Positions 2,002 to 49,193 are shown, numbered from the stretch's first letter. The stretch is DNA of 64,000 nucleotides from Patescibacteria group bacterium (GCA_019744845.1 JAIETW010000001.1:282176-346175); one strand, 5' to 3'. Notes: generated from the letters alone by a model not told the origin. Translations and numbers: made by a program.

Positions 2002-2013
2002 GCCCCTATCCTA

Positions 2014-2670: not shown

Positions 2671-2671
2671 G

Positions 2672-3814
2672 CTACGCAAGCAAATCTTCGTCTCTCGCAA
2701 ACGCAAACTTGTAGCAAGTGACGACAATCGCTCCTGCTGCGGCAGCGGTAAGCACCACAGACACCAAGAATCCAATCACCGGAATAACTCCTACCAAACG
2801 AAGCACCACCATGCCGAGTACCGCATGCTTCCACGTCACCACCGTGTGCTTAAACGTACGCATGAGGGCTGCACCGGCGAGCACGCCCGCATAGAGGTAT
2901 GCGAGAAGAAGGAGAAGGACATATGCAGCACCTATCACCAGCCCTATGCCAATACCCGCAAAAGAGATCATGAGAATAAATACCAACACCGGAGTTGCGA
3001 TCATTACCGCAAATCCAATGAGCGCGAGAAGTGAGAAACGACCGACGGACTGTGTAAGCGTACGGTCCACTATTCTTTGAGTAAAGACTGGGAAGAGTCC
3101 CGCCATAAGGCCAGAGGCAACCACGGCAGAAATAAGTCGTACGATGAAGAACACGCCGAGGCCTGCGAGCGCAAAGGTTTCTGCCTCTTCGGTGGTTGGA
3201 AGGAACGCAGAAGATCCTGTGTAGGCAACACTACCAACGGTCGCAGATGCAGGTATGTATGCCTCCTGTGGTGCGTTGTACTTAAGAGCGCCGGTGACGA
3301 CCGTTCCCTCTCCAAGTGCGAGACGGTCTGAGGCGACCACCGTCACGTCTCCTGCGTAGTTTCCTGAAAGTGTAACGGATGCTCCATAAATGATCACTGA
3401 TCCTGTCGCACCTTCGGTGATGGTGACCGTGCCTCCTGCGATTCTAATATCCCGCGCAATACCGGTGACAGTGATGGAGCCGCCGGCCGCAATCAAGTCC
3501 CCTGCGACCTCCTGTTCAATAAAGACTCTTCCTCCTGCGACACGAAGATCACCACCAATGGATTCACGAACATTCACATCTCCTCCGAGCAAGAGTGCAT
3601 CCCCTTCTACCGGAGCAGCAAGCACGAGTGTGCCGCCGAGTGCGGCAATGTCTTGAGGCACGGTCGTTGCCACCCGTACTTCTGACCCAAAGAGATAGGC
3701 ATTGTCGGAAGGTGGCTCCGCGACAATAAGTGCCTCATCCCCCGCAAAGGTACTCGCAAAGCTTGTGAATGGAAGGAGGAGTAGGAGGCTTATAACCAGT
3801 GCATTTCGTCGCAT
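2672..3814 (-). CDS. Membrane protein with N-terminal Gly-rich beta-helix-like repeats and C-terminal TM domain
   Basis: Signal peptide MRRNALVISLLLLLPFTSFA. Repeats such as GGDLRVAGGRV, AGGSITVTG and IAGGTVTITEG, then 4-5 hydrophobic helices. Start chosen to avoid overlap with the VKOR gene. Confidence 0.5.
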   Translation of the reverse strand: MRRNALVISLLLLLPFTSFASTFAGDEALIVAEPPSDNAYLFGSEVRVATTVPQDIAALGGTLVLAAPVEGDALLLGGDVNVRESIGGDLRVAGGRVFIEQEVAGDLIAAGGSITVTGIARDIRIAGGTVTITEGATGSVIIYGASVTLSGNYAGDVTVVASDRLALGEGTVVTGALKYNAPQEAYIPASATVGSVAYTGSSAFLPTTEEAETFALAGLGVFFIVRLISAVVASGLMAGLFPVFTQRIVDRTLTQSVGRFSLLALIGFAVMIATPVLVFILMISFAGIGIGLVIGAAYVLLLLLAYLYAGVLAGAALMRTFKHTVVTWKHAVLGMVVLRLVGVIPVIGFLVSVVLTAAAAGAIVVTCYKFAFARDEDLLA

Positions 3815-3819
3815 ACAAA

Positions 3820-4287
3820 TTATGGTAGCACAGCTGGTGGAAGTGGGAGAAGGCGCTTCCGATATGCAACTACGAGACCGGCAAGTATGAATGAAACCAC
3901 CGCAGACGCGAGACAATAAATACAGATTGCCTTAATCACGAATACTTGTAGGAAAAGGAAGTAGGCGGACGCAAGTGCTCCTACCACTGACGCAGCTGCT
4001 AGTCCCTTCACCGCAAGGCGAGATGAGCGAGAAAGGAGGTACACCGAAAGAAGGAGAATGACTGCATAGAAGCCAAGCCCATAGACCGCAAGCGGAATAC
4101 CGAGGAGCTTAGAATACGGGCTTGCTGCCACGGTGTTGCACTTATCAAGGCCTTCAATATCACAGACAAGAGGATCTGCAGTAAGAGCGCTATGAGCAAG
4201 ATAGGCTGAATCTGCGAAACCAATGAGAGTGAGAACGATTAGTATAGAAAGGAGAGCCTGGCGGGTCATATGTCCGCTATAGTACAC
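3820..4287 (-). CDS. Vitamin K epoxide reductase (VKOR) family thiol oxidoreductase
   Basis: Polytopic membrane protein with a loop Cys pair (CDIEGLDKC) and a CxxC in the last TM (CIYC), as in VKOR/DsbB-like proteins. Confidence 0.6.
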   Translation of the reverse strand: MYYSGHMTRQALLSILIVLTLIGFADSAYLAHSALTADPLVCDIEGLDKCNTVAASPYSKLLGIPLAVYGLGFYAVILLLSVYLLSRSSRLAVKGLAAASVVGALASAYFLFLQVFVIKAICIYCLASAVVSFILAGLVVAYRKRLLPLPPAVLP

Positions 4288-4294
4288 TATTCGT

Positions 4295-4690
4295 ATGAAC
4301 CCTGATGTTGAGAGCGAGAAGTGGCGAGAGAAGCTTACTGATGAGGAATATCGTGTTCTGCGGGAACAAGGGACCGAGGCACCTTTCTCAGGTGAATTCG
4401 TGAATCATCACGAAAGCGGTATGTATCGCTGCAAGGCCTGTGGTACCGAACTCTTTTCTTCAGACGCGAAGTTTGACTCGGGTACAGGCTGGCCGTCATT
4501 CACCGATCCTGCAGTCGCAGAGAATGTCGGCACCCGCCCTGATGACTCCTACGGCATGCATCGCACCGAAGTGTATTGTAAGAAATGTGGAGGACACCTT
4601 GGTCACGTATTTAATGATGGTCCTGCAGAACAAGGTGGAAAACGATACTGCATTAACTCAGTGTGTCTTGAGTTTGAGAAGCAAGACTAA
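4295..4690 (+). CDS. msrB: Peptide methionine-R-sulfoxide reductase MsrB
   Basis: RCKACGTELF...GWPSF...CKKCGGHLGHVF..RYCINS. Both zinc CxxC pairs and the catalytic Cys are present. Confidence 0.9.
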   Translation: MNPDVESEKWREKLTDEEYRVLREQGTEAPFSGEFVNHHESGMYRCKACGTELFSSDAKFDSGTGWPSFTDPAVAENVGTRPDDSYGMHRTEVYCKKCGGHLGHVFNDGPAEQGGKRYCINSVCLEFEKQD

Positions 4691-5154
4691 ATGTGACAAA
4701 CCGCGTTCGGGTGCTTTTCAAAATACCTCTGGTGATATTCCTCTGCTTTGTAGAACGGAGTGACAGCAGTAATTTCAGTCGCAATCGTCTTCGGATGGAA
4801 TGAGGGCTGAAGTTCTTTTTTCAATTGCTCAGCGATCTCTTTCTGTTCTTCATTGAGATAAAAGATACCTGAACGATACTGGCTTCCTACATCCGGTCCC
4901 TGACGATTGAGCTGCGTAGGATCGTGCACTGCAAAAAACTTTCGTACAAGCGCTTCATACGTAACCTGTGCTGGATCAAACGTCACGCGCACTGCTTCTG
5001 CATGCCCCGTTTTGTCAGTACACACCTGCTCGTACGTAGGATTCTCCGTATGTCCACCAATGTAGCCTGACTCTGCATCAGTCACTCCAGGAACCTGGAG
5101 AAACGCGTACTCCACGCCCCAGAAGCATCCCGCTGCAAATATTGCTTGATTCAT
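4687..5154 (-). CDS. msrA: Peptide methionine-S-sulfoxide reductase MsrA
   Basis: GCFWG active-site motif directly after MNQAIFAA. Stop codon overlaps the msrB stop (convergent). Start could also be at 5178. Confidence 0.9.
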   Translation of the reverse strand: MNQAIFAAGCFWGVEYAFLQVPGVTDAESGYIGGHTENPTYEQVCTDKTGHAEAVRVTFDPAQVTYEALVRKFFAVHDPTQLNRQGPDVGSQYRSGIFYLNEEQKEIAEQLKKELQPSFHPKTIATEITAVTPFYKAEEYHQRYFEKHPNAVCHI

Positions 5155-5216
5155 GTGGTTAGTATACAGAACACTCATCTAATCGCGATTTTCTCAACAC
5201 TGAATCAAAATGCAGT

Positions 5217-5639
5217 CTAGGACGCGAACCTGTTCGTTCCTCCCCTCTCCCGCTCGTTAATCGGGTGCTCATCTAGGCCAAAGTAGTGCCCCACCTCATG
5301 CCATATAGTCTCTCGTATAACCTGACGCACATACTCCCGAAACTGACTGGTATGGTCGTCAGTAAGTTCCTCAGCCTCTGCAAGGATAGGGAGACGAAAA
5401 AGCGTAATAGTGTCAGGGAGCGTACCGCCCACCCCATACTCACTCCCCCGCTCCGTATTCGGAACGCCGTGATACACCCCAAGTAGGGTCTCTCCCTCTT
5501 GTAACCCTTCTTCTGTACGAAGTGCTGCGCTCGGCTCATCCTCAATCAAAAGCGCGACATTCTGTACGAGTGCCGCAAATCGTTCAGGCACCGATTGCCA
5601 CTCAGAGAGTGCGATTGCCTCAAATTCATCCTGTTCCAT
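5217..5639 (-). CDS. Zincin-like metallopeptidase family protein (COG3824/DUF1025-like)
   Basis: HEVGHYFGL (HExxH) near the C-terminus. Small acidic protein. Confidence 0.5.
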   Translation of the reverse strand: MEQDEFEAIALSEWQSVPERFAALVQNVALLIEDEPSAALRTEEGLQEGETLLGVYHGVPNTERGSEYGVGGTLPDTITLFRLPILAEAEELTDDHTSQFREYVRQVIRETIWHEVGHYFGLDEHPINERERGGTNRFAS

Positions 5640-5662
5640 AGTTGAGATAGTATACTAGCGCG

Positions 5663-6298
5663 ATGGATATTCCCTTCCTCCACGTCACCCTTCCCGAACT
5701 CATACAGATGGTCGGGTATGTGGGCGTATTTGTGATCGTTTTCATAGAGTCCGGCGTACCGATTGGCATCGTCCTCCCACTTCCAGGAGACACCCTTCTC
5801 TTCTCCGCAGGTATCCTCGCCGCCACTCAAGCGTTTGAACTCGTACCCCTTATCGCCACTATTGTCGTCGCCGCAATACTTGGCGACAGTGCAGGCTACT
5901 GGTTTGGCTCACACTACGGCCCAAAGCTTTTTACGAAAGATAATGCGCTCATTCTTAACAAACGATATCTAGAAAAGACTGAGAAGTTCTATCAAAAGTA
6001 CGGACGCATGGCGCTCATTGTCGCGCGGTTCCTTCCCGTCTTCCGTACACTCGTGCCGATCATGGCTGGCATGGGCAGCATGAAGTACCGCACCTTCCTC
6101 GCCTTCAATATTGCCGGGGCCCTTATCTGGGGTATCTCTCTTACCATGCTCGGCTATTTCCTCGGGAACATGATCCCGAACATTGATACCTACGTGCTTC
6201 CTGTCCTTATCCTTGTGATCATCATCACTACTTTTTCTGGCTTCCGCGAAGTCTGGAAGGCGCGGAAAGAAATGCAGAATGAAAAAACCGCCCCCTAG
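5663..6298 (+). CDS. DedA family membrane protein
   Basis: GDTLLF motif, polytopic, VARFLPVFRT. Typical DedA/SNARE-associated layout. Confidence 0.8.
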   Translation: MDIPFLHVTLPELIQMVGYVGVFVIVFIESGVPIGIVLPLPGDTLLFSAGILAATQAFELVPLIATIVVAAILGDSAGYWFGSHYGPKLFTKDNALILNKRYLEKTEKFYQKYGRMALIVARFLPVFRTLVPIMAGMGSMKYRTFLAFNIAGALIWGISLTMLGYFLGNMIPNIDTYVLPVLILVIIITTFSGFREVWKARKEMQNEKTAP

Positions 6299-6326
6299 TG
6301 GAGCGGTTTTTCGTTGAGGAGAAGGA

Positions 6327-7019
6327 TTAGAGCTCAGCCTCCACGAGTGGCTTTACCACTGTGTATGGCTGCGCGCCGGCAACAAGACTGGTGCCAATGA
6401 TAGAACCTGGCGTACCGTTGATACCGAAGGTAGCGCCTTCGTCACGACTTGCACTGATAATGGTCGTGTACTCTCCTCCCTTCTCAGTGATGAGAGTAGC
6501 AACACGTGCCGTATCAATACCAAGTCCTGCGGCAGTTGCATCAAGCGCGGCACGAGAAAGAGTGTTCTCTCCTTCACCGGTCATGACCGCGTCAAACCAG
6601 GTGCCCCACTTATCAGGAGCTGCCTCCCATACGGCGTGTGAGTAGATAGCAGTATCAAGAGATGCCTGACCAAGGAACTGGAAGTCCTTGTAGACAATCT
6701 TCACTTTTCCACTGTCAACGAACTCTGCCTTAAGATCCTTAAGAGTGGTTGACTCAAAGCGCTTACAGAAGCTGCACTGGTAATCAAACCACACTGCAAC
6801 AGTCACTGGAGCGTCCTCATCTCCGATGAATGGAGTTCCTTCCGTCTTCACATCCTTGATATCAACTGCCGCAGCAGGAGCTCCCGCCTCATCCCCTGTC
6901 TTCGGTGCTGAAGGATTACCAAAGTAAATTGCCCCTGCAATGATGATGAGACCGAGAAGGAGCGCGACTGCAGTGCCGTTCTTCTCAATGAAGGTCCCTC
7001 CGTTCGTAGAATCTGCCAT
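6327..7019 (-). CDS. DsbA-like thiol:disulfide oxidoreductase (membrane-anchored)
   Basis: N-terminal TM anchor, then a thioredoxin fold with WFDYQCSFCKRF (CxxC). Confidence 0.7.
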   Translation of the reverse strand: MADSTNGGTFIEKNGTAVALLLGLIIIAGAIYFGNPSAPKTGDEAGAPAAAVDIKDVKTEGTPFIGDEDAPVTVAVWFDYQCSFCKRFESTTLKDLKAEFVDSGKVKIVYKDFQFLGQASLDTAIYSHAVWEAAPDKWGTWFDAVMTGEGENTLSRAALDATAAGLGIDTARVATLITEKGGEYTTIISASRDEGATFGINGTPGSIIGTSLVAGAQPYTVVKPLVEAEL

Positions 7020-7093
7020 AGATAAAAGTTATGCCAAAAAACCTGATATGCCACATAGCATACCAGGCTTCGGCATCCTGCCAAGTACGGGGA

Positions 7094-8483
7094 TTATGAG
7101 ACGAAGGTAAGGGCTTTCCCGACCTTCCCGGCACGGCCTGTACGGCCAATGCGGTGGGTGTAGTCCTCGTAGGACTGCGGAAGGTCATAGTTAATGACGT
7201 GGGACACGCCACTAATATCAAGACCACGCGCAGCCACATCAGTCGCCACAAGCACCTTCACATGATCACGCTTGAAGAGTGCGAGAGCCTGCTGGCGCTT
7301 GCCGTGCGTCTTATCGCCGTGAATAGATTCAGCCGCGATGCCACTACGAACAAGGTCACGTGCAAGACGCTCCACCCCGTGCTTCGTACGTCCGAAGACA
7401 AGCACCTTGTCAAAGGCAGGATCAGACAGAAGCTCTACCAACCGCTCAAACTTCTGTGACGGAGAGACACGGATCACATCCTGATCAATCGTTGCCGCCG
7501 TATCACGCGTCTTCACGGATACGTGTACTGGATCGTTAAGGAAGTCACCAATCAAGCGCTCAATATCACGGCTCATCGTTGCAGAGAAGAAGAGCGTGTG
7601 ACGATTCTTCGGCATGTGGCTCAAGATAAAGCGCATGTCATCAATGAAACCCATATCAAGCATGCGGTCTGCTTCATCAAGTACCACGGTCTGGAATGCA
7701 GAAAGATTAAGCTTCTTGCGGTCCATAAGGTCCTTCAAGCGTCCTGGCGTACCAATGACGAAGGCAGGGTCACGAGACAGTGCACGAATCTGCGGCACAA
7801 TGTTTGCGCCGCCGACACAGGTCACTGACGCAAGGCGAAGCATCTTCGCAAAGCCCCAGAACTCGTTCTCAATCTGAAGTGCAAGCTCACGCGTCGGCAC
7901 CATCACGAGAATACGATTCTCACGATTGGCGATTACCTTCTCAATAAGTGGAATGAGAAAGGCGCCCGTCTTTCCAGTACCCGTGTTTGCAAGTCCGACC
8001 ACGTCACGACCCATAAGGATGTGCGGAATAGCCTGATCCTGAATCGGCGTTGGAGTGGTGTAGCCTTTACCAATAATGTTGTCTTTAAGCTGCTCGCTGA
8101 TCGGAAGATCAATGAATGCAGTCTGAGGAACGTAGGCAACGACGTCTTCCTGAGGAGTGGCTTTGTTAATAAGCTTTGACATATCAAAGCTTGGTTCGGA
8201 GCGACCACGGCGAGAGCCACCACGGCTTCCACCACGAGGACCTCCACGTGAGGGACCTCCTGGACCACGACGGTTTCCCCCTCCGCCTCGGTATGAGGAA
8301 GAAGAGTGTTCTTTAAGGTCATAGCTAGACGCAGTGACTGGAGGCTTCCAGCCTTCCTGTGCAAAACGCATACCTGCTTCAAACGCAGGCGTGCGTACAG
8401 GACCACGGCGATGAGCGCCTGGACGTCCTCCTACCTTGGGGCGGTGACGTGCACCTCCCTTATTATCTGAATTTTTGTTCATA
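7094..8483 (-). CDS. DEAD-box ATP-dependent RNA helicase with N-terminal RGG/Gly-Arg-rich low-complexity region
   Basis: AxTGTGKT, DEAD (VLDEADRMLD), SAT and HRIGRTGR motifs. Start set at MNKNSDNKGG. The first ~110 aa are RGG/GPRGG-rich. Confidence 0.85.
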
Positions 8484-39958: not shown

Positions 39959-40034
39959 TGGAGCCACCTCCCGGGATTGAACCGGGGACCTCTTCGTTAC
40001 GAGTGAAGTGCTCTACCAACTGAGCTAAGGTGGC
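39959..40034 (-). tRNA. tRNA-Thr (anticodon CGT), CCA encoded
   Basis: Acceptor GCCACCT/AGGTGGC, D-arm GCTCAGTTGGTAGAGC, anticodon loop CTCGTAA, variable AGGTC, T-arm CCCGGTTCAATCCCGGG, 3' TCCA. Confidence 0.8.
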
Positions 40035-40102: not shown

Positions 40103-40696
40103 ATGATCCCTACTGATTTTACATTCGTAGGAAAGCATTACGCGGCACGTACGCATGAAAAGATGCGCGAGGTGCTTATGAACCCAGACGCACCGGGACC
40201 AGAGGTGCACTACTACATGATTCGTGGCGGGGAGACGCAGCGAAACATCACCGTCTGGGAGCCAGGGCTGGTCGGCGGTGAATACATTAAGACCTACGGC
40301 CACTACCATGTGGGAGAACTTGATGAGACCTATTGGATTATTTTTGGAGAAGGACTCATCCTCAAACAAAAGATGACGAATGATCCGACCGTGGTTGAAG
40401 AGTTCTCTATCACCCGCGTCACTCAGGGCGACAGTGTCTTTCTCGCTCCTGGATACGGACACCTCGCCATCAACATTGGTTCTACCTTCTTTGTCACTGC
40501 GGATGACAGTCCTGTGCGTTTTGATGATCCCGATCCTGCAGGGCTTCCCGGACACGCAGACTACGAGCCCGTACGAAAGATGCGCGGGTTTGCGTACTAT
40601 GTGATTGAACAGAATGGTGGACCTGCTCTCGTCCGCAATACGAACTACGCCGCAATACGAAAAGAAGACCTTGCAGGTCTTCTTGTTGTGAAATAA
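40103..40696 (+). CDS. Cupin-type glucose-6-phosphate isomerase (archaeal-type cPGI family)
   Basis: KTYGHYH...GEGLILKQ...APGYGHLAINIG aligns with Pyrococcus cPGI (TKGHFH...GKGGMLLQ...PPYWAHRTVNIG): metal-binding His and Glu within a cupin fold. Confidence 0.6.
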   Translation: MIPTDFTFVGKHYAARTHEKMREVLMNPDAPGPEVHYYMIRGGETQRNITVWEPGLVGGEYIKTYGHYHVGELDETYWIIFGEGLILKQKMTNDPTVVEEFSITRVTQGDSVFLAPGYGHLAINIGSTFFVTADDSPVRFDDPDPAGLPGHADYEPVRKMRGFAYYVIEQNGGPALVRNTNYAAIRKEDLAGLLVVK

Positions 40697-40700
40697 ACAC

Positions 40701-40851
40701 TTGGAGACCCTATTAAACTCCGTTAGAACCCATTTTGCAAAGGAGCCCTGATTACTCGCGCCTCGCAGACTCGGCGCTCGCCCCGACCCCGGTCCGCACT
40801 GAAATCCTTTTCTTTTTTCGCGGGGGGAATCCAAAAATCCGGGCTCGGAGC
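40701..40851. repeat. Repeat X, inverted copy (attR-like: X arm + CTCCA + cPGI 3' end)
   Basis: 150 bp, the near-perfect reverse complement of 45021..45161. It ends in gggtCTCCA, abutting the cPGI stop. Confidence 0.85.
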
Positions 40852-40950
40852 GGCAGGGCTCGGGGGTAGCCCAAAATACCCAGTGGTCTCGTGTCTGTTT
40901 TTATCCGCTTTGAATCGTCCCTGACTAAAGAGATTCACCCCTCGGCATCC

Positions 40951-41253
40951 GCCTCGGGGCTGTTTCCGCTATGGCTACGAAGGCCTAGATTTCTCTGTGC
41001 CGCCTTTTTCCTTGCTCTCCGCCCTGCGGGGCGGGAGCTTCGGGGCGGCTTCCAGTTTGGGGGAAGGAAGTTATCCTTCCCCCAGCTTCGGCCTCCTCCT
41101 CGTTCCTTCGGAGTCCGGCCTCGCACAACCCCCATCCTCGTTTGCATACGCGAGTGTTCGTTGTGTCGCTTCCGCTTCGGGATACGGTGCCTCCGGTGTT
41201 CGTCGGCCTTCGTCCTTTAGCCATGGACGCTCATAGCGGAAACAGCCCCGAGG
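40951..41253 (+). other. GC-rich ~300-bp noncoding element with 23-bp perfect terminal inverted repeat and multiple C(UUCG)G tetraloop hairpins (candidate structured RNA or MITE)
   Basis: gcctcggggctgtttccgctatg at 40951 is the reverse complement of catagcggaaacagccccgaggc at 41231. The interior holds a 10-bp perfect hairpin (gggggaagga/tccttccccc) and four cttcgg motifs. Only spurious high-GC ORFs overlap it. Confidence 0.4.
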
Positions 41254-41317
41254 CAAATACATAATGCTTGCCCCTCCCACCCGTGCGCGCATACCGCCTA
41301 GCAGAACGGCGGGCTCC

Positions 41318-41686
41318 CTAAGAACGACGCAGCTGCTTATATACAAACCAGCCCAGGGGTATGAAAAACAGAGATGTAATGAGGCCGGGAGAGTAGGCTT
41401 GATCCGCAAATGCGGTAAACGGATGAGACAGTTCGATTACGCAGAAAACTAAAAGAACGAACCACAGTATTTTTGCTTTTGGATTTTCACGAATCTTGTA
41501 CAAAAGGTACAGGAAAATAAAGACCACTACTTGCACCAACAACCAAACAATTACTTGCGGGAGAAAAAGAGTTTCTGAAAACCATTTAAGAATAGTGTCA
41601 GTTCGATGGAATCCAGACAGATATTCTTCAACGGCGTGGGCCAGGAATAAAAACGCGGCAAGAGCAAGGATAACGGTCTTATTCAT
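41318..41686 (-). CDS. HXXEE-domain membrane protein
   Basis: LAHAVEEYL HXXEE motif in the first TM region. Four TM helices. Confidence 0.5.
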   Translation of the reverse strand: MNKTVILALAAFLFLAHAVEEYLSGFHRTDTILKWFSETLFLPQVIVWLLVQVVVFIFLYLLYKIRENPKAKILWFVLLVFCVIELSHPFTAFADQAYSPGLITSLFFIPLGWFVYKQLRRS

Positions 41687-41689
41687 AAG

Positions 41690-42127
41690 TTAGTGTTTAA
41701 CCAAATATGCTAGTTGCTCAGCTGATAAAATTTCTGAGATCGGATACAAGAATAAGAATCTTGGATCATATGGCTCACGTTTCTGAGATAAATCGACCGA
41801 AATACCTTTACCTTTCAAATACTGTATTGCGGCATTTACTGCCTTCAACTCTTCATCACGACGAAATGAGGTGGAGAAGATGTATTGCAGTGCGAATTTA
41901 AAAGGACCCTTCTTTTGCTCGCGCCTATGTTCCTCCTCATGAACTAGCAGGGCTTGAAAGGTTATTTCTGGGTTTTCACTGTGTAGATTTTCGTAGATTG
42001 ATTCTGGCAAGAATATGTATGGATAAATTGAATAAGCAACCTTCTTTCTAAGAAAGAATCTCAAGGAGCTCGGGGTTTTTCGCACATACCGAGGTAATTC
42101 CATTGCTCTCAATAGTACACTCCTCAT
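41690..42127 (-). CDS. Hypothetical protein with HEEEH (HExxH-like) motif
   Basis: LLVHEEEHRRE. Possible minimal zinc-metallopeptidase-like fold. No other support. Confidence 0.3.
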   Translation of the reverse strand: MRSVLLRAMELPRYVRKTPSSLRFFLRKKVAYSIYPYIFLPESIYENLHSENPEITFQALLVHEEEHRREQKKGPFKFALQYIFSTSFRRDEELKAVNAAIQYLKGKGISVDLSQKREPYDPRFLFLYPISEILSAEQLAYLVKH

Positions 42128-42157
42128 ATCAAAAAGCCCCTTTCGGGGCTTTTTGAT

Positions 42158-42784
42158 CTAGAGAAGAATCAGGAGTAATCCTGCTAACGCCGCCATGCCG
42201 AAGTCCTCGATGAGAGTGATCTTCGTTAGCGGAACTTTGAGGAAAGTTCCGAGGCACGCGCACATGAATTCTTCCTTCTTCGCTATCTTGATCGCAACTC
42301 CGATACCGCTGAAAAGCATCACGACGAGTTCCGTCCACAAGAGCCACGCATCGTGAATACCCGCGAGCATCAGGAGACCGAACGCGAGTTCTATGAACGG
42401 GTAGATATACCCGTAGGAAGACCAGCGACTTGCAAGGAGGTCATAGGTTGAGTACCCCTCCGCAAATCCCTTGAGGTCTAGGAACTTGAATCCCGCGAAG
42501 ACGAGGAAGAATCCTGCCATGAAGTACCCGATAGTGTTCGGGAGTGCGAATTCTCCGTTCGCATAATCTCCCCACGAAGCCGCAAGCGTGCCCGCGATGA
42601 GGAGCCCGAAGATAACCATGAGCGGGATATAACTCTTCCAAGTTATCGGCCCGAGGCCTCGGTCTTCAATGTGTCGTTTTGGGGTTGCGATTACTTCCGC
42701 TTCCGGTACGAGCGCCATGTGGCACTTCGGGCATCGCCCCGGCCCTTCTTGTCGCACTTCAGGATGCATTGGACAGGTATACAT
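42158..42784 (-). CDS. Heavy-metal-binding domain (CPMHPE...CPKC) fused to MauE/DoxX-like membrane domain
   Basis: N-terminal MYTCPMHPEVRQEGPGRCPKCHMAL (HMBD/YHS-like Cu-site). Membrane domain with FMCACLGTF, characteristic of MauE/DoxX redox proteins. Confidence 0.6.
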   Translation of the reverse strand: MYTCPMHPEVRQEGPGRCPKCHMALVPEAEVIATPKRHIEDRGLGPITWKSYIPLMVIFGLLIAGTLAASWGDYANGEFALPNTIGYFMAGFFLVFAGFKFLDLKGFAEGYSTYDLLASRWSSYGYIYPFIELAFGLLMLAGIHDAWLLWTELVVMLFSGIGVAIKIAKKEEFMCACLGTFLKVPLTKITLIEDFGMAALAGLLLILL

Positions 42785-42786
42785 GG

Positions 42787-43278
42787 CTATATCGCTTCAT
42801 AACTGATAATGACTTTCTCTTTGTCTTTGAGCACGGTGTTTTCGTAGGTGTCCACTTCCTTGCCATCCACCAGAACCTTAATCCGGTGAGTCTCGTCCGT
42901 TTTGTACCCGAGGATTTCTTCGCTCGTGAACGGCTCTCCCCACACCGCGAAGAAGTCGGCGAGCGTGAAGTCGCGCCGTTCCGGCGATTCCACATGAATT
43001 GTTCCTATCGCATCGTGCGTATGAAGAGCGTTCATGCAGTCAGTACGCACACCAATATTCACGGGTATCTCCTGTATCTGCCCGTTCACGACTATTTCAA
43101 GCGTCGGATGAATGTGGAACTCAGTCGCCATATCCGTCGTACAAGTCAGAGCGACTTCCCTGTTCGTGCGTTCGGTCTTTATGGGTTCTTGCTCTCCTCG
43201 CGTGAAGAGGACGAAGAGCAGGATGAGTGCCGATATGCCGAAGACGATTGCGATGTTCGTCTTCATACTATCCTTCAC
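42787..43278 (-). CDS. Hypothetical exported His-rich protein
   Basis: Signal anchor. HIHPTLEIVVNG and ALHTHDAIGTIHVE His motifs (candidate metal ligands). Confidence 0.35.
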   Translation of the reverse strand: MKDSMKTNIAIVFGISALILLFVLFTRGEQEPIKTERTNREVALTCTTDMATEFHIHPTLEIVVNGQIQEIPVNIGVRTDCMNALHTHDAIGTIHVESPERRDFTLADFFAVWGEPFTSEEILGYKTDETHRIKVLVDGKEVDTYENTVLKDKEKVIISYEAI

Positions 43279-43364
43279 GCAAGGCTTGCTCTATCGACTC
43301 ATACGGCTGCGCGCCCGAGAACAGGGTGAGATACTTCTCCAGCGTCGAGTTCATGGTCGGTTTT

Positions 43365-43757
43365 TTACTCAGTTCCGTACCACGCCTTCTGCCACTCTTT
43401 CATCTGCGCGATTTCTGCATTCTGTGCCGAGATGATGGCGTTCGCCATTGCCTTTATCTCTGCGTGCTTCGCATCCTTAAGTGCCGCTTCTGCCATCGCG
43501 ACTGCTCCTTCGTGATGCATGATCATCTCCGAGAGAAACGCCTTATCAAAGGCATCCCCCGTCTTTCCAGAAAGACCCATCATCATAGAGTCCATTTCGC
43601 CCTCCATGCCGGATGACATGGAACCAGACATCATGTTTCCGTCCGGCATCATGTGCCCGTTCTGTTGCTCGGGAGCAGTTTTCCCTACAAATGCATAGGT
43701 GCCAAGACCCCCGATAATAAGAGATACAAGTGCGACGAGAACGATATTTTTTTGCAT
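43365..43757 (-). CDS. DUF305 family protein with Met-rich segment
   Basis: MIMHHEGAVAMAE matches the DUF305 HH-x-GA motif. Preceded by MMPDGNMMSGSMSSGMEGEMDSMMMG (Met-rich, Cu(I)-binding-like). Start at MQKNIV. Confidence 0.6.
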   Translation of the reverse strand: MQKNIVLVALVSLIIGGLGTYAFVGKTAPEQQNGHMMPDGNMMSGSMSSGMEGEMDSMMMGLSGKTGDAFDKAFLSEMIMHHEGAVAMAEAALKDAKHAEIKAMANAIISAQNAEIAQMKEWQKAWYGTE

Positions 43758-43799
43758 AGGTTTTGAATCAAAGCGAATAAGCGCACGAAAACGCGGCAC

Positions 43800-44162
43800 T
43801 TAGTACGCTTTTGAATTCAGGAGTCCTTGCGCGAACAGTTCTTGAAAGAGTGTCGGTCGAGCCGCGTATGTAGGTGGCGGAGGCGACCATTCGTTCCGGC
43901 GAGGAAGAAGGTACGCAAAGCCAATCGTTGCAATGACAGCAAGGTATGGAAGCGAATCAACGAGCGTAGTCGTGAACGCACTTTGCCAATGCTCTATGTG
44001 ATCGAACACGCTCATGGCGCAGATGGACATCTGTCCCTGCATGAACGGACAGCCGATGTCGTGATTCTCGGACATGGAGAGAAGCGTGAACGGCCCGAGC
44101 ACGACCATCACAAAGACGGCGGCAGTGAGCCCTATGGAGACAAATACCTTCCTGATAGCCAT
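43800..44162 (-). CDS. Hypothetical membrane protein with CPF...C motif
   Basis: Two TM helices. GCPFMQGQMSIC. Confidence 0.3.
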   Translation of the reverse strand: MAIRKVFVSIGLTAAVFVMVVLGPFTLLSMSENHDIGCPFMQGQMSICAMSVFDHIEHWQSAFTTTLVDSLPYLAVIATIGFAYLLPRRNEWSPPPPTYAARPTLFQELFAQGLLNSKAY

Positions 44163-44251
44163 GTATGTATTATACCGCGCAAGTCAAGGGCGCGGAATTA
44201 TACCCCCTCATGCGTACTTCATACCTTCTTAACTAGGATTATACTTAGGAT

Positions 44252-44704
44252 ATGAATCACAGCCCCTACCCGCGCTTTGCCCTGATGATTCTGCTTTCGT
44301 TCGTCGCGATGTACATCCTTATGTTTTCAATGGCGAACGTGTTTGCGAATGTGTATCCGAGCTTCAATCAACTCTACATGGCAGGGCTTATGACCGCGCC
44401 CATGGTGCTGTTTGAAATATTCCTTATGGGCGCTATGTACCAGAACAAGAAACTTAACCTCGCGATTGTTGCTGTGGCGCTACTCGCGCTCATCGGCTTC
44501 TTTTTCGCGATTCGCTACCAAGTGGGCATATCGGACGAGGAATTTCTAAAATCAATGATTCCTCACCATGCTGGGGCAATCCTTATGTGTGAAAAGGCCT
44601 CGATTGATGACCCGGATATCAAGGAACTATGTAGCGGTATTCTCTCTGGGCAACAGTCAGAGGTGGATTGGATGAAAGCAAAACTGAGTGAATTAGAAAA
44701 ATAA
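44252..44704 (+). CDS. DUF305 family membrane protein
   Basis: MIPHHAGAILMCE DUF305 motif after three TM helices. Confidence 0.55.
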   Translation: MNHSPYPRFALMILLSFVAMYILMFSMANVFANVYPSFNQLYMAGLMTAPMVLFEIFLMGAMYQNKKLNLAIVAVALLALIGFFFAIRYQVGISDEEFLKSMIPHHAGAILMCEKASIDDPDIKELCSGILSGQQSEVDWMKAKLSELEK

Positions 44705-44721
44705 ACAATTAATTCAAAAAT

Positions 44722-44943
44722 ATGAAATTATCAAAACCAATGCATGTTATTAGTGTCATAGTTGGACTTGTTGGGATTGGCACATTAATTGCGGCAACTG
44801 TTGCCGGACAAAGTAATTTGGTGTTTGGATTTACTCGGGAGCATTTACTCTTTTGTTCCATCATTGTCTTTCTCGTAGCAATCTGGCTTCAGATTGCCAC
44901 CATCCATCATATGATGCTTGAGAAGCGCGGAGAGGTGGTCTAA
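44722..44943 (+). CDS. Small membrane protein, hypothetical
   Basis: 73 aa, two TM helices. Confidence 0.3.
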   Translation: MKLSKPMHVISVIVGLVGIGTLIAATVAGQSNLVFGFTREHLLFCSIIVFLVAIWLQIATIHHMMLEKRGEVV

Positions 44944-45020
44944 CTAACGGTCTGCAACTAGTTAGCCGATACAGCAAGAGATAATCTAGTTAAAAAATTC
45001 CTCGCCCTGCCGCTCCTTGC

Positions 45021-45310
45021 CGGATTTTTGGATTCCCCCCGCGAAAAAAGAAAAGGATTTCAGTGCGGACCGGGGTCGGGGCGAGCGCCGAGTCTGCGAG
45101 GCGCGAGTAATCAGGGCTCCTTTGCAAAATGGGTTCTAACGGAGTTTAATAGGGTCTCCAAAATCGAAATCAGCCCAGTTTTTCCCGAATGCATTTTTGC
45201 GCAGTGCAATTCCCGCCAAGGGAGTTCAGGGATTCCGCGCGCTTCGCGCGCGTGGAGGGAGGTTCAGAAATACAGAATCCGAAAATTTTCTGGAGGGAGG
45301 ATTTTTTATT
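45021..45310. repeat. Repeat X+Y contiguous (attP-like: X arm, CTCCA at 45156-45160, Y arm)
   Basis: 45021-45161 is the reverse complement of 40701-40851. 45156-45307 is the reverse complement of 48683-48825, about 95% identical with one small indel. Confidence 0.85.
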
Positions 45311-45393
45311 CCTTGTGTGCTTGCCCCACCCTTCCCGTGCGCGCACACGAGCCCTTTCGCTAAAAACGCTGTAATTAGCGAAACTCCCTCCTA

Positions 45394-46683
45394 TTACTTC
45401 AGAAGATCATCCAGTTCACTGGATAGTAAAGCAGATTTATTGAGCAAAATCTCCTCTTTCTGATTCAGATTCTCAGCAGTCATTCTAATGACTTTCGTAC
45501 GGATTATGTTGCCTAAAATAATGTTCCCGGTTTTATCTAGATATTTCCTTGTTTTCCTTGCAAACAAAGTCGCATACTGTCGCAATTTCTCTTCAGAAGC
45601 AGGATGGGAGCTTGAGCCGTTGGCGCCAAACTCTATTTTATTATCAAGCGATATATCTCGCTCAGTTGGCAAGTCTCCGTCGCGGAAGTGGATCCAATAC
45701 TCACTAATTGCATACTGAACATGTACGGGTTCCCCTTCTTCGGTTGAGTAGTCGTAACTAAAGAAAAACGTATCCGTACGGAAATCCTGAAATACGCGAA
45801 TGTGTTCAAGTGAACGAACCTTCCTAATTCCATAACTATCCAGAAGGCGAAGATAACTCTCGCGCCAGTTTGTAAGCCAATTTGTAACGAAGGTCTGATT
45901 TACGAACAGCGGGCTTAGATCCTGCTTAAGGTTTTCGTCGCTCACTTTATTCATCTGAAGAGTGAGCTTGTCGAACAGTGCGCGCGGGTCTTTCACGTCA
46001 ATGCCTTTCGCAATCAGATAATCAAAATCAGGAACAACTTTCTTAGTCATATACCAGAGCAAATCATAGATATCTCTTCCCTTTTCTTCATATGTAGCCT
46101 GTCCAACCCCCCTTGTTCCGCGTAGGAAAATTGCAGCAATTTTACTAGCCATCAGTGAAGACATGTTGTAGGTGAGAATGACGAATGACATTTGGTCGCG
46201 GTTAATCGGCCTACGCTCCGTCACAGTCTTTGGGGCAACAAAATGATTTAGGTCTATTTTTACGTGAATCTGTTTTGAAGGATGTCCCGAGCTCAAATCG
46301 TCTCCAACAATAAACCTGAGCAACAACCCTCTACCGGTAGTTACTTTGATGGTAAGAAAGTCGCTACCGGCGCCATATGTATTAGCAAAATACTCTTCCA
46401 CCTCACTCTTTAGACTTTCCAAGAACTTTTCTGTGATTGAATGACCTACCTCAAAATCCAAATCAACAGACATACGATCTAGCCCGTGGATGATGCGAAG
46501 AGCGGAACCGCCGTACATGACCCATTTGCTGTATTCGGGATGGTGATAGACAAAGTCGAGAACAAAATACTGAAGCTCTTCTTTAAGCGCATTTCGACGT
46601 GTTTCCGCATCCAAGCCACCGTAAGCGGAAAGTTCTTCAAGTTTTCTTTTCAAGATTGTTACGATCTGTTCACTCATAGACAT
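45394..46683 (-). CDS. AbiEii/AbiGii-family nucleotidyltransferase toxin (type IV TA / abortive infection)
   Basis: VMYGGSALRIIHGLDRMSVDLDFEV matches the AbiEii GG(S/T)AL...R.S.DLDF signature. At 429 aa it is longer than typical. Overlaps the upstream antitoxin gene by 14 nt. Confidence 0.75.
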   Translation of the reverse strand: MSMSEQIVTILKRKLEELSAYGGLDAETRRNALKEELQYFVLDFVYHHPEYSKWVMYGGSALRIIHGLDRMSVDLDFEVGHSITEKFLESLKSEVEEYFANTYGAGSDFLTIKVTTGRGLLLRFIVGDDLSSGHPSKQIHVKIDLNHFVAPKTVTERRPINRDQMSFVILTYNMSSLMASKIAAIFLRGTRGVGQATYEEKGRDIYDLLWYMTKKVVPDFDYLIAKGIDVKDPRALFDKLTLQMNKVSDENLKQDLSPLFVNQTFVTNWLTNWRESYLRLLDSYGIRKVRSLEHIRVFQDFRTDTFFFSYDYSTEEGEPVHVQYAISEYWIHFRDGDLPTERDISLDNKIEFGANGSSSHPASEEKLRQYATLFARKTRKYLDKTGNIILGNIIRTKVIRMTAENLNQKEEILLNKSALLSSELDDLLK

Positions 46684-47287
46684 ACGCTTTTATCATGTCA
46701 TTAAATTTCTGCTGTTCACTAATTTCCATTTCTTCAAAATCTATTCTAAGTTCGTTAATTATTTTTGGTATTTCATTACGACGAACACCACGAAACTGAC
46801 GTGTCCTGAAATATAGCAAGTCAAACAATGCTTTCGAGGGAGAGGCGATAAAGAAATTAAACTTCCCTTCCATAAGTGAGTAGTCAGAAAAGAGTTCTTT
46901 TTTAATTGACTGATACGAAAATGTCCCAGCTTTTGTTTCGTAATCTCTGGTCACCTTAAGTGAGACTGACGTAACTGAGCGAATAACCTCTGTAGTGAGA
47001 TTGTAATACTGAAGTGCCGTCCACGAGCTTATGTACGATGGCTTCCGAAGGATGTTCGCAAGGTAGTAAAGATACGAAATTTCACTTTTGTTTTTTTCAA
47101 AGAAGTCTCCCGAAATATATAGGCCATTTTTAAGCGCAAGAATTTCCCTCCGCTTAAGAAAACGGCTTACATAGGTGTTAATTGTGCTCTTTTTGAGGCC
47201 TAGCTGATCAGCAAGCTGAAAAACTGTATTTTTGCTGAAATGAGGTAGAGCCTTGAGCTGTTCTATTAGATTGCTCTTGCTTTTCAT
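46670..47287 (-). CDS. AbiEi-like antitoxin/transcriptional regulator (wHTH)
   Basis: About 200 aa, N-terminal winged-HTH-like region, immediately upstream of and overlapping AbiEii. Canonical AbiE operon order. Confidence 0.6.
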   Translation of the reverse strand: MKSKSNLIEQLKALPHFSKNTVFQLADQLGLKKSTINTYVSRFLKRREILALKNGLYISGDFFEKNKSEISYLYYLANILRKPSYISSWTALQYYNLTTEVIRSVTSVSLKVTRDYETKAGTFSYQSIKKELFSDYSLMEGKFNFFIASPSKALFDLLYFRTRQFRGVRRNEIPKIINELRIDFEEMEISEQQKFNDMIKAYVYE

Positions 47288-47328
47288 AAATATGACACTA
47301 GTGTATTATATATGAAATAAGAAGTCAA

Positions 47329-48900
47329 TTGGCTATGAAATACTTCCTATACGCCCGCAAAAGCACCGACACAGAGGACAAACAGGTTCTCTCTATTGAG
47401 GCGCAACTAGCCGAATTGCGCTCCCTCGCCCGTCGTGATGGGCTAGAAATCGCTGAGGAGTTTGTAGAAAAGCGGAGCGCGAAATCGCTTGGTCGTCCCG
47501 TGTTCGGCGAAATGATGACGCGCATCCAAAACGGTGAGGCACAAGGAATACTCTGTTGGAAGATAGATCGCCTCGCACGTAATCCTGTAGACGGTGGACA
47601 GATTCAGTGGCTACTTCAACAAGGCGTGATTCGCCATATCCAAACGCACGACCGCTCCCACTTTCCGAACGACAATGTGCTGATGATGTCGGTAGAACTC
47701 GGCATGGCGAACGAATATATACGCCAACTCTCCGCAAACACCGCACGGGGATTACGACAGAAAGCGCGAACGGGCGTGTACCCCGGTCTCGCCCCTATCG
47801 GCTACCTAAACGACCCACGCACGAAAACTATCCGCACTCACAAAAAGAACTCTGTACTTGTGCGTGAAATGTTTGAGCGGTACGCGAACGGAAACACAAC
47901 ACTAAACGATCTCGCGCTCTTTCTTGAAAACTCTGGGGTGATTTCTAAGGGCAGTAAGCGCGTAAATATTTCGCGTGTCTCGTTTGTTTTGCAGAACCCT
48001 TTTTACTACGGCCATTTCCGCTACGCGGGCGAAGTATATGAGGGTAAGCACGAGCCGATCATCACGAAAGCGTTATACGACAAAGCGAATACGGTACTGC
48101 GAAGCCGTGGCCGAACTCCGGCCTCTAAAGCCGTTCCTAGCCCCTATTGTGGCCTCCTACGCTGTGGCGAGTGCGGTATGGGCATCACGGCCGAAGTGAA
48201 GGAAAAGCACCAAAAGAACGGCAATGTCCACCACTACACCTACTACCGTTGTACCCGTAAATCTAAAACTCAAAAGTGCAAAGAAGCGCCGATACGAAGC
48301 GAACTTCTTGATTCGCAACTAACGGCACTTCTAGGCGAGTACACGATGCCTGCCGAGTGGGTGTCCCCTCTAAACGAAATGCTCAACCGCGAGGCGACTA
48401 TGGCCTCACAGACCGCATCAGGGGCGATTTTTGAACTACGAGCAAAAGCGGAAGATATATCGCGCCAACTTTCTCGCCTCACGGATTTGTATGTGGCGGA
48501 AGATTTGGAGCGCGATGACTATCTTGCTCGCCGAAAGTCCCTCGTGTCCGACAAGCGGACGCTAGACGAGAAAATCGCCAAACTTGAACAAGCCCCTTCG
48601 GCTTGGGTTGAACCTGTTAGGGAATGGATTTCGGACGCTTCGCGCCTGGGTGAAATCGCAAAGTCCGAAGACCCGCATTCCAAAAAATCCTCCCTCCAGA
48701 AAATTTTCGGACTGAACCTCTCCCTCCACGCGCGCGAAGCGCGCGGAATCCCTGAACTCCCTTGGCGGGAATTGCACTGCGCAAAAATGCATTCGGGAAA
48801 AACTGGGCTGATTTCGATTTTGGAGCCGATGTCCGGGATTGAACCGGAGACCTCGTCCTTCGCTTACACTCTCGCTTCTTGCATGCGCGCGAAAGGCTAG
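47329..48900 (+). CDS. Large serine recombinase (integrase); annotated 3' end uncertain
   Basis: YARKSTDTEDKQ catalytic Ser motif, resolvase domain, recombinase domain, zinc ribbon CGLLRCGECG...YYRC and coiled-coil. The last ~85 codons run through repeat Y and the tRNA. Confidence 0.8.
   Translation: MAMKYFLYARKSTDTEDKQVLSIEAQLAELRSLARRDGLEIAEEFVEKRSAKSLGRPVFGEMMTRIQNGEAQGILCWKIDRLARNPVDGGQIQWLLQQGVIRHIQTHDRSHFPNDNVLMMSVELGMANEYIRQLSANTARGLRQKARTGVYPGLAPIGYLNDPRTKTIRTHKKNSVLVREMFERYANGNTTLNDLALFLENSGVISKGSKRVNISRVSFVLQNPFYYGHFRYAGEVYEGKHEPIITKALYDKANTVLRSRGRTPASKAVPSPYCGLLRCGECGMGITAEVKEKHQKNGNVHHYTYYRCTRKSKTQKCKEAPIRSELLDSQLTALLGEYTMPAEWVSPLNEMLNREATMASQTASGAIFELRAKAEDISRQLSRLTDLYVAEDLERDDYLARRKSLVSDKRTLDEKIAKLEQAPSAWVEPVREWISDASRLGEIAKSEDPHSKKSSLQKIFGLNLSLHAREARGIPELPWRELHCAKMHSGKTGLISILEPMSGIEPETSSFAYTLASCMRAKG
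48683..48825. repeat. Repeat Y, inverted copy (attL-like: tRNA-Thr 3' end + CTCCA + Y arm)
   Basis: Reverse complement of 45156-45307. The CTCCA core is nt 72-76 of tRNA-Thr(GGT). Confidence 0.85.
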
Positions 48901-49074
48901 ACTGTATCTTTATCCTAACGGATACCCTTGTCAGTCGTTCGGGCGATATCTCGCCACGGTCTTGTCTCGCATGAGATATTAACCGTTATTCGGGATTCAC
49001 CTACACATTGCTGCATAAGTGGGCAGGGTCTGCGACCCACCATGGACGCGCTCTACCAACTGAGCTACATCGGC
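48821..49074 (-). tRNA. tRNA-Thr (anticodon GGT) split by a 178-nt group-I-like intron in the anticodon loop; CCA encoded
   Basis: 5' exon GCCGATGTAGCTCAGTTGGTAGAGCGCGTCC-ATGGT; 3' exon AA-GGACG-AGGTC-TCCGGTTCAATCCCGGA-CATCGGC-T-CCA. The exons are near-identical to E. coli tRNA-Thr(GGU). The anticodon stem halves CGTCC/GGACG lie 185 nt apart. Confidence 0.65.
48861..49038 (-). ncRNA. Group-I-like intron in tRNA-Thr(GGT), inserted after anticodon nt 36
   Basis: The 5' exon ends in U. The intron ends in G (GTGTAAGCG|AA). P7-like pairing CGACTGACAAGG...AGATACAGTCTAGCC resembles Tetrahymena CAGACUAAAUG...AGAUAUAGUCGGACC. Confidence 0.5.
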
Positions 49075-49193
49075 ATTATCTGACTCGTAAGGAACCCAGG
49101 CATCCTAACGCGACTGCACTAATCTTTCAATCTTCACCAAGTAACCTGGTAGGCTTGCGAGTGGTTCATAAAGGTATACTCTGCTCATAATAT

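Follow-up and report, generated by a model that had tools for sequence, protein, structure and literature searches.

An integrative element of Patescibacteria with a large serine recombinase, two pairs of inverted arms and a second attP-type site

Results

The locus and its genes

The window analysed here is a stretch of 64,000 nucleotides (nt) from a Patescibacteria group bacterium (GCA_019744845.1, JAIETW010000001.1:282176-346175), in which 8.1 kb of DNA is inserted between the gene for cPGI and a tRNA-Thr(GGT) gene, at the end of the latter. We have very little doubt on two joint points: this DNA (40701-48825) is integrated and belongs to a large family of mobile elements in Patescibacteria, and a spare attP site is a trait of that family. 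The element is bipartite by design – a cargo module within inverted X arms and a recombinase module within inverted Y arms – with the spare attP joining the two.

To the left lies the host gene for cPGI, a cupin-type glucose-6-phosphate isomerase (40103-40696, plus strand; recognized by the Pfam GPI family and by synteny, which extends to the related loci L008 and L017). Its stop codon stands 4 nt ahead of the core of attR, which reads CTCCAA on the minus strand (40701-40706; junction A, placed by comparison of junctions and by the empty site of L017). From this core the outer X copy, X', extends to 40859 (minus strand; perfect to 40842 and degenerate beyond). After a GC-rich insert (40951-41254) and the first copy of a structured motif (41256-41321) comes the cargo module, S1 (41318-44943), supported by the same cargo in L058 (83-86% identity) and by unitig L004. 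It encodes, on the minus strand, an HXXEE protein (41318-41686), an open reading frame (ORF) of 145 amino acids (aa; 41690-42127), an HMBD-MauE protein (42158-42784), a 163-aa ORF (42787-43278), the first of two DUF305 proteins (43365-43799) and a 120-aa ORF (43800-44162); on the plus strand are the second DUF305 protein (44252-44704) and a 73-aa ORF (44722-44943).

The inner X copy, found by repeat search (45004-45161, plus strand), leads into the core of the internal attP-type site, site B (45156-45161, plus strand), where X meets Y in an orientation inverted with respect to attL and attR. The Y(int) arm (45156-45307, plus strand; repeat comparison) and a second copy of the structured motif (45309-45391) precede the recombinase module, S2. 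Cargo is present here also: AbiEii, a nucleotidyltransferase toxin (45394-46683, minus strand; Pfam 9e-22, PADLOC 2e-29), and AbiEi, its antitoxin/regulator (46670-47287, minus strand; PADLOC 1e-36), whose ORFs overlap by 14 nt and which constitute an AbiE type IV toxin-antitoxin, or abortive infection, pair. The large serine recombinase follows (47335-48900, plus strand; Pfam and PDB matches). The 3' coding end of its gene is the Y'(rec) arm (48682-48825, plus strand; recognized as a repeat and by a hairpin with covariation), which ends at the attL core (48820-48825, minus strand): here CTCCA is made up of the final base of the acceptor stem, the discriminator and the encoded CCA of tRNA-Thr(GGT), which is the target of integration (48821-49074, minus strand). 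A first-pass annotation of the window had listed the large serine recombinase, the AbiEi/AbiEii pair, HMBD-MauE, two DUF305 proteins and HXXEE as the gene content of the insertion, and Pfam and PADLOC together confirm it.

Repeat arms and attachment sites

Two pairs of inverted repeats organize the element. X occupies 40701-40842 and 45020-45161 (142 nt, 100% identity), with weaker similarity to about 40859 and 45004. Y has a main block (45156-45261 and 48720-48825; 106 nt, 100%) and a second block (45278-45307 and 48682-48711; 30 nt, 100%), the two being split by an indel that measures 16 nt in the internal copy against 8 nt in the recombinase copy. Repeats that are perfect over such a length within 11 kb do not originate by chance.

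Evidence for integration comes from three junctions. Junction A, read on the reverse complement, is X-CTCCA-AGTGTTTATTTCAC and joins X to the cPGI flank; junction B is X-CTCCA-AAATCGAAATCAGCCC and joins X to Y; junction C, again on the reverse complement, is ...CATCGGCTCCA-AAATCGAAATCAGCCC and joins the tRNA to Y. The first-pass annotation had read A as attR, C as attL and B as a full attP-type site in inverted orientation, all belonging to an insertion made by a large serine recombinase between tRNA-Thr(GGT) and cPGI. The junction sequences are as it gave them, and the insertion itself is borne out both by the hybrid junctions and by an empty site. That site, which had been predicted, is present in L017: the cPGI stop codon is followed by 3 nt and then by TGGAGCCGATGTCC, the 3' end of an intron-less tRNA-Thr(GGT) gene. 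The empty attB sequence is gtgaaataaacacTTGGAGCCGATGTCC, and no duplication of host bases was seen at the ends of the element. The same relationship among the three sites holds in L008, L014, L021, L025, L027, L040, L046 and L058; comparison of eight elements narrows the sequence common to the three sites to CTC, which is non-palindromic.

Further information resides in the spacing of the half-sites. Within the first 30 nt of the X arm is a conserved attP-type left half-site, GGTTC-N19-CTC: the distance from GGTTC to the core is 19 nt in X as against 15 nt in the tRNA ends (window and L027), a shift of 4 bp. Work on the LI integrase places the outer motif of an attP half-site of large serine integrases about 5 bp further from the centre than that of attB. 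The X spacing is consistent with a longer half-site of attP type, and we take it as a lead only.

The junctions can also be followed in sequencing reads. Independent Logan assemblies of three sequencing runs (SRR15085116/126/127) match the window at 100%, and their unitigs end 30 nt (k-1) inside the arms: L001-L003 comprise flank plus 30 nt of X, L004 the cargo module plus 30 nt of each X arm, and L104 the recombinase module plus 30 nt of each Y arm. Such unitigs show the boundaries of the repeats, the orientation of a module across perfect arms not being readable from them; that they end within the arms means that the inner and outer junctions of both repeats are real in the reads.

Next to the core, identity between arm copies is about 97%; in Y (n = 49) it has dropped to background about 160 nt away, and in X (n = 12) it has done so at 150-350 nt. 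The two copies of each arm in the window are 100% identical, but between the window and L058 the Y arm is only about 87% identical, a difference of about 13%. Identity within an element combined with such divergence between elements indicates that the arm copies evolve in concert. Y(int) is non-coding; it repeats, in inverted orientation, the 144 nt of the recombinase gene that end with the core. In the window it carries a net A-rich insertion of 8 nt that breaks the reading frame, and A-rich insertions of 8-12 nt in the internal Y are typical of a GC-rich subfamily of elements. No such insertion occurs in the AT-rich subfamily, whose arms are 99-100% identical and of equal length; an insertion of 8-10 nt in Y(int) is by this ruled out as a universal feature.

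The target tRNA gene

The first-pass call of tRNA-Thr(GGT) stands, with one correction: the gene spans 49074-48821 on the minus strand and contains a 178-nt intron (49038-48861) after U36 of the anticodon. Elements of the insert – GAAUCCCGAAUAACGGUUAA ... CGAACGACUGACAAGGG ... AGAUACAGUCUAGCC ... GUGUAAGCG – are kept in L008, L011, L015, L029, L032, L077 and L084, making eight loci with the window. Neither ARAGORN nor Rfam detected the intron, even at E<=10, and it is on account of the intron that both missed the tRNA gene. Divergent group I introns at position 36/37 of Patescibacteria tRNA-Thr(GGU), overlooked by standard covariance models, have been described (PMC13011429); the 178-nt insert matches this description and is thus an already known feature. 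The tRNA-Thr(CGT) gene (39959-40034) and tRNA-Thr(GGT) (48821-49074) are adjacent in many relatives and are here split by cPGI and the element.

Distribution of the architecture

A related element, 83-87% identical to that of the window, lies in L058 between prfB and tRNA-Thr(CGT), with the copper cargo of the window preserved at 83-86% identity. The presence of a close relative at another tRNA gene marks the element as both mobile and site-specific. Homologues of the recombinase number more than 5,800 at E<=1e-20, and many, from Patescibacteria assemblies, are 60-90% identical to it. We fetched 75 genome loci and surveyed the 56 that have a near-full-length recombinase gene. In 41 of the 56, ARAGORN calls a tRNA that converges on the recombinase gene, the two overlapping at their 3' ends: 34 are tRNA-Thr (GGT, CGT or TGT), two are Val, one each are Gly, Phe, Arg and Ile, and one has a TTA anticodon ('tRNA-Stop'). 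Six further loci have a tRNA-like end that ARAGORN does not call, bringing the total to 47/56. Among the relatives, elements are found at either or both of the tRNA-Thr isoacceptor genes, both being occupied in tandem in L009 and L014.

An inverted copy of the recombinase 3' end occurs upstream of the gene in 48/56 loci, at 131-8,992 nt before the start; three of the eight loci that do not show it have less than 1.6 kb of contig upstream. The internal site persists in loci whose recombinase identity is as low as about 53%. In many of the loci for which the sequence is at hand, the internal Y copy is adjoined by a conserved X end (GGTTCTAGC-N-AATAGRGACTC), and many contigs begin a few tens of nt within this X end, as is expected if X is repeated. 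Both repeat pairs are present in at least 14 loci, the window included. The smallest complete element (L027) measures 3.6 kb, with one cargo gene between the X arms and the recombinase alone between the Y arms; in minimal elements of this kind site B is 130-300 nt upstream of the recombinase start. Large serine integrases conventionally have one attP per element, a rule that this family does not follow: a second, inverted attP is present in 48/56 loci. Recurrence of the layout across related loci identifies it as an inherited architecture and not a local accident. Relatives with the same gene content carry the repeats too; the first-pass annotation had pointed out that their absence there would count against its interpretation.

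The recombinase and its C-terminal tail

The recombinase has the Resolvase (PF00239), Recombinase (PF07508) and Zn_ribbon_recom (PF13408) domains of Pfam, and its distant homologues in PDB are SPbeta SprA and the A118/LI and TP901-1 integrases (E ~1e-12). The 523-aa protein of the first-pass annotation is obtained from the TTG at 47329 and is 521 aa from the ATG; the ORF, moreover, runs through Y', the core and the tRNA 3' exon. Look-ups of exact proteins matched AbiEi and HMBD-MauE and gave no match for the recombinase (with either start) or for AbiEii, probably owing to differing gene calls.

The position of the attL core inside the recombinase ORF has a direct consequence. In the window the final 24 codons read the strand opposite to the tRNA 3' exon and to the end of the intron, and the core is about 20 codons ahead of the stop; recombination at the core thus swaps the C-terminal tail of the protein. 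In the integrated state the tail is tRNA-antisense, EPxxGIEP... (...LEPMSGIEPETSSLPWTRSTN), and the protein has its common length of 516 aa; loci with the intron, the window among them, read ...SSFAYT... instead. In the attP state it is encoded by X and reads E[S/T]LLxxARTYF... (...LESLLYSARTYFS...), in the form ...ILETLLNSVRTHFAKEP. Of 120 homologue clusters, 68 have the tRNA-antisense pattern and at least six the X-encoded tail; many of the tails left unclassified by these patterns also look tRNA-derived when judged by eye. No candidate for a directionality factor is evident in the 3.6-kb minimal element (L027). Since minimal elements contain no other mobility gene, the state-dependent swap of the tail is a candidate in its own right, and may contribute to directionality.

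A hairpin, usually with a UUCG loop, lies 45-65 nt from the core, among the 50 terminal codons of the recombinase gene (region of 48760-48790; columns 76-90 of alignment A2). Its stem shows compensatory substitutions between subfamilies, indicating that a nucleic-acid structure is conserved within the coding sequence.

Structured motifs and the GC-rich insert

A conserved structured motif follows the inner end of each arm, always on the recombinase strand, and is represented by 56 instances in related loci (alignment A1). It consists of an 8-bp stem around the loop CCCCACCCACCCGU, is mostly followed by a variable second hairpin, and ends in ACUCCCU. Covariation supports the fold (AU<->GC 27:24, CG<->UA 33:18, C-G<->A-U 43:12). 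Of the two copies in the window, both on the plus strand and both identified through this covariation, the first (41256-41321) has its stem around the loop CCCCUCCCACCCGU, a second hairpin and the ending GCUCCCU; the second occupies 45309-45391. The motif could serve as a terminator or insulator, as a signal in single-stranded form or as a regulatory RNA.

The GC-rich insert (40951-41254, plus strand; about 300 nt) is closed by a perfect helix of 23 bp (inverted repeat I5) and contains many hairpins of the cUUCGg type, with a predicted minimum free energy of -163 kcal/mol (z = -8 against shuffles). It is kept at 83-87% in L058 and L009, and L027 has only a short hairpin at this place; the insert holds no ORF that is supported across the family. 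Rfam returned no match in the arms, the structured motif, the GC-rich insert or the tRNA intron.

Probable use of the spare site

Several arrangements among the related loci bear upon the activity of the internal site. Modules reassort: the window combines the copper cargo with AbiE and the recombinase, L008 has the same S2 (86%) with a different S1, and L058 has the S1 of the window with an S2 that contains only the recombinase. Chains also occur, in which three or more modules are separated by attP-type junctions that alternate in orientation (L083 (= L094) 1-7909, L008 2083-3925, and L090); among their parts are remnants of decayed recombinase genes (L083 6238-7692) and, beside the X' arm of L008, a decayed stub resembling Y. 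A single recombinase module of L083 has X2–Y(int) on one side and Y'(rec)–X1' on the other. The X1 and X2 ends are only about 70% alike, from which it follows that recombination at the core, rather than homologous recombination, produced these joints. In L084 the module of L083 (99.8%) is joined to tRNA-Thr(CGT) via Y(int).

In L015 (9445-11700) and L055 (9421-11560) the recombinase module stands between a tRNA-Thr–Y(int) joint and a joint of Y'(rec) with a tRNA-like half-site; in the second half-site of L055 GGTTC is 15 nt from CTCC, which is the attB-type spacing. Both Y arms being joined to tRNA-type half-sites, the layout calls for core-specific recombination at both attP copies, whichever way the module is turned. 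It suggests that a chromosomal inversion took place between two tRNA-type sites.

Finally, one X-bracketed module is inverted between two metagenomes: L083 3523-6096 is the reverse of L085 3497-6070 at 100% identity, within a flank that is colinear at 99.6%. An all-against-all search among 14 closely related locus pairs gave no other inversion pair. A segment inverted by the recombinase, which the first-pass annotation had also put forward, would not show at the junctions, since all three keep their sequences if inversion takes place at the cores.

Discussion

The whole of the evidence is best explained by a bipartite element that a large serine recombinase integrates at tRNA 3' ends, and that carries two inverted attP sites of which the spare is recombinogenic; we place the probability of this reading at about 0.65. 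The recombinase would cross over at the extreme 3' end (CTC / CCA) of tRNA genes, mostly those for tRNA-Thr. Excision, by recombination of attL with attR, is predicted to yield a non-replicating circle with two inverted attP sites, either of which could be used for integration. The attP left inside the integrated element would stay recombinogenic, and could in this way bring about module inversion, cassette exchange, accretion from one element to another and, now and then, an inversion between tRNA genes. We consider it probable that the spare attP works as a recombination site; any particular selective purpose for it is, at best, doubtful, the candidates being a flip-flop like that of the 2-micron plasmid, a relaxed enzyme resembling a transposase, regulation at the RNA level and duplex formation in a single-stranded form. 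It is also somewhat unlikely that the recombinases constitute a new functional class, one that recombines identical attP-type sites with each other as well as with a tRNA attB, that flips, swaps and chains modules without a factor – perhaps being switched by its tail – and that inverts segments between tRNA genes.

A number of observations weigh against a recombinogenic spare site. The canonical large serine integrases (phiC31, Bxb1, A118) are not known to recombine attP with attP, attL or attR, and given these pairing rules inversion or cassette exchange driven by the recombinase would need an atypical enzyme. There is, too, a pronounced bias of orientation: a tRNA or tRNA-like end lies by Y(rec) in 47 loci as against by Y(int) in three, which means either that the two attP copies are unequally used or that flipping is rare. 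The breakpoints of the L083/L085 inversion fall within about 115 nt of identical arm from the core, in which the crossover is not mappable; site-specific recombination, a RecA-mediated event and the choice of an assembler are here inseparable, and the inversion could be any of these. The second tRNA-like half-sites of L015 and L055 are not recognized tRNA genes, that of L015 being neither tRNA nor tmRNA. A scan of metagenomes produced 14 loci with a Y'(rec)–X' junction, some of which are merely internal copies without an insertion, and no circular form was demonstrable among them. The source samples revealed no free circle and no empty-site variant, with Logan unitigs unbranched at the core, and no relatives of the element were found in viral contigs.

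Some of these same observations are what would be anticipated if the arms were passive. An ancestral rearrangement – for example a tandem dimer followed by internal inversion and deletions – might have duplicated attP once, with host homologous recombination and gene conversion keeping the copies alike and occasionally flipping modules; the recombinase would then use the attP at the 3' end of its own gene alone, the internal copy being non-working. The strong orientation bias, the broken frame of the internal Y in the GC-rich subfamily, the location of the L083/L085 breakpoints in identical sequence and the pairing rules of canonical enzymes would all be accommodated. But a useless site of 300 bp should vanish often from streamlined genomes, yet it is present in 48/56 loci; the double tRNA-type joints of L015 and L055 are beyond the reach of homologous recombination; and the non-homologous X1 and X2 joints around a single module were made at the core. 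We consider this explanation unlikely.

That the arms have mainly an RNA or regulatory role is quite improbable. Here Y(int) would be an antisense or self-pairing partner of the 3' end of the recombinase mRNA, and the hairpins of the arms, along with the C-rich motif, would stop or insulate transcription that crosses the att sites and the tRNA, the resemblance of B to an att site being secondary. The UUCG-loop hairpin of the coding Y arm, with its compensatory changes, the strongly covarying motif that follows each inner arm end on the same strand, and the position of site B 130-300 nt upstream of the recombinase start in minimal elements are all in keeping with such a role. In the window, however, AbiEi and AbiEii stand between B and the recombinase, so that B is no promoter region, and regulation leaves unexplained both the X half-site placed with its exact core beside Y(int) and the duplication of X.

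A third proposal, and a very improbable one, is that two inverted attP sites serve the element once it has been taken up or transferred as single-stranded DNA, by letting that form fold into one duplex attP. A precedent exists in the Vibrio phage CTX, the single-stranded form of which pairs two inverted dif-like sites into a duplex attP. In the element X' with X and Y with Y' can pair on one strand, rebuilding a duplex X–Y site and joining the host flanks, and the strand-specific, covarying hairpin motifs suit single-strand functions. Against this, serine recombinases cut both strands of a duplex, and integration of a dumbbell leaves a broken chromosome with hairpin caps, requiring extra steps; the minimal elements, moreover, lack replication, transfer and phage genes, and relatives on viral contigs are wanting.

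The two nested or sequential integrations that the first-pass annotation had put forward, or alternatively misassembly at the repeats, are negligible as explanations. Perfect repeats do exceed the k-mer, such that unitigs do not fix the orientation of the modules. But the same layout is found in dozens of genomes that come from several studies and were put together by different assemblers, and the arms there are often imperfect and were assembled through; each of three independent read sets contains every inner and outer junction of the repeats; and a series of conservative attP x attB events is unable to duplicate arms of 100 nt and more.

Three other models were considered and rejected. Were each module a circle of its own with a palindromic joint, the core should be palindromic, and it is the non-palindromic CTC, with left and right half-sites that never swap sides. 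A hairpin-telomere or inverted-dimer replicon would give X–X' and Y'–Y junctions and not X–Y. A role for B as promoter or operator of the recombinase fails in the window, where B is not adjacent to the gene.

Comparison with known systems places the element closest to those of the large serine integrases (phiC31, Bxb1, A118/LI, TP901-1 and SPbeta SprA). Shared features are a three-domain recombinase with a coiled-coil region, hybrid products of attP x attB, a short non-palindromic crossover, absence of target duplication and, putatively, a longer attP half-site. In contrast to those systems, the element has a second, inverted attP inside it, arm repeats of 100-350 nt and a crossover within the recombinase ORF; its target is a tRNA 3' end, as is usual for tyrosine integrases, and there is no evident directionality factor. 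TnpX (Tn4451), TndX (Tn5397) and CcrAB (SCCmec) are large serine recombinases that excise and insert their own elements and tolerate several pairings of sites, thereby providing a precedent for relaxed pairing; their elements nonetheless have a single joint in the circle, no long internal inverted arms, and other targets.

Parallels of layout come from further afield. The yeast 2-micron plasmid (FLP/FRT) resembles the predicted circle in having two long inverted repeats with recombination sites and two unique segments, one of them encoding the recombinase, and isomers that differ by inversion would be expected of the circle as well. FLP, however, is a tyrosine recombinase, and the plasmid replicates, flips for the amplification of copy number and does not integrate; neither the element of the window nor the minimal elements have a gene for replication. 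Serine invertases (Hin, Gin, Cin and Pin, with the Rci shufflon as a tyrosine analogue) likewise involve segments bracketed by inverted sites beside a serine recombinase gene, and alternating chains. Those enzymes are of about 190 aa, use an enhancer and Fis on sites of about 26 bp, and do not integrate, whereas the present protein has 521 aa and the domains of large serine recombinases; inversion here alters no junction sequence and no obvious expressed product save the tail of the recombinase. Archaeal tyrosine integrases of the SSV and pTN3 types share an attP inside the integrase ORF and tRNA targets, and those of pTN3 type have been proposed to drive chromosomal inversions in Thermococcales (PMC5495485). 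They differ in superfamily, in having a gene that is split rather than tail-swapped, and in the lack of a duplicated inverted attP. Full-text searches of the literature found no description of this architecture or of the element family, which is apparently undescribed: an integrative element of a large serine recombinase, with a bipartite, inverted-repeat design and a double attP.

For annotation, the structure of the element accounts for the frequent contig breaks at tRNA-Thr loci in these genomes and for recombinase calls with many different C-termini. Its wider meaning depends upon the use of the spare site. Large serine integrases are prized as simple and strictly directional enzymes that act on a single attP and a single attB and need a further factor to run in reverse. 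Should the spare site be used in the way that the comparisons suggest, a serine integrase would support cassette exchange, accretion and chromosomal inversions from tRNA to tRNA. Such enzymes would have unusual rules of site pairing that may be of value for genome engineering; and the process would matter for bacteria that have tiny genomes and few known routes of gene transfer.

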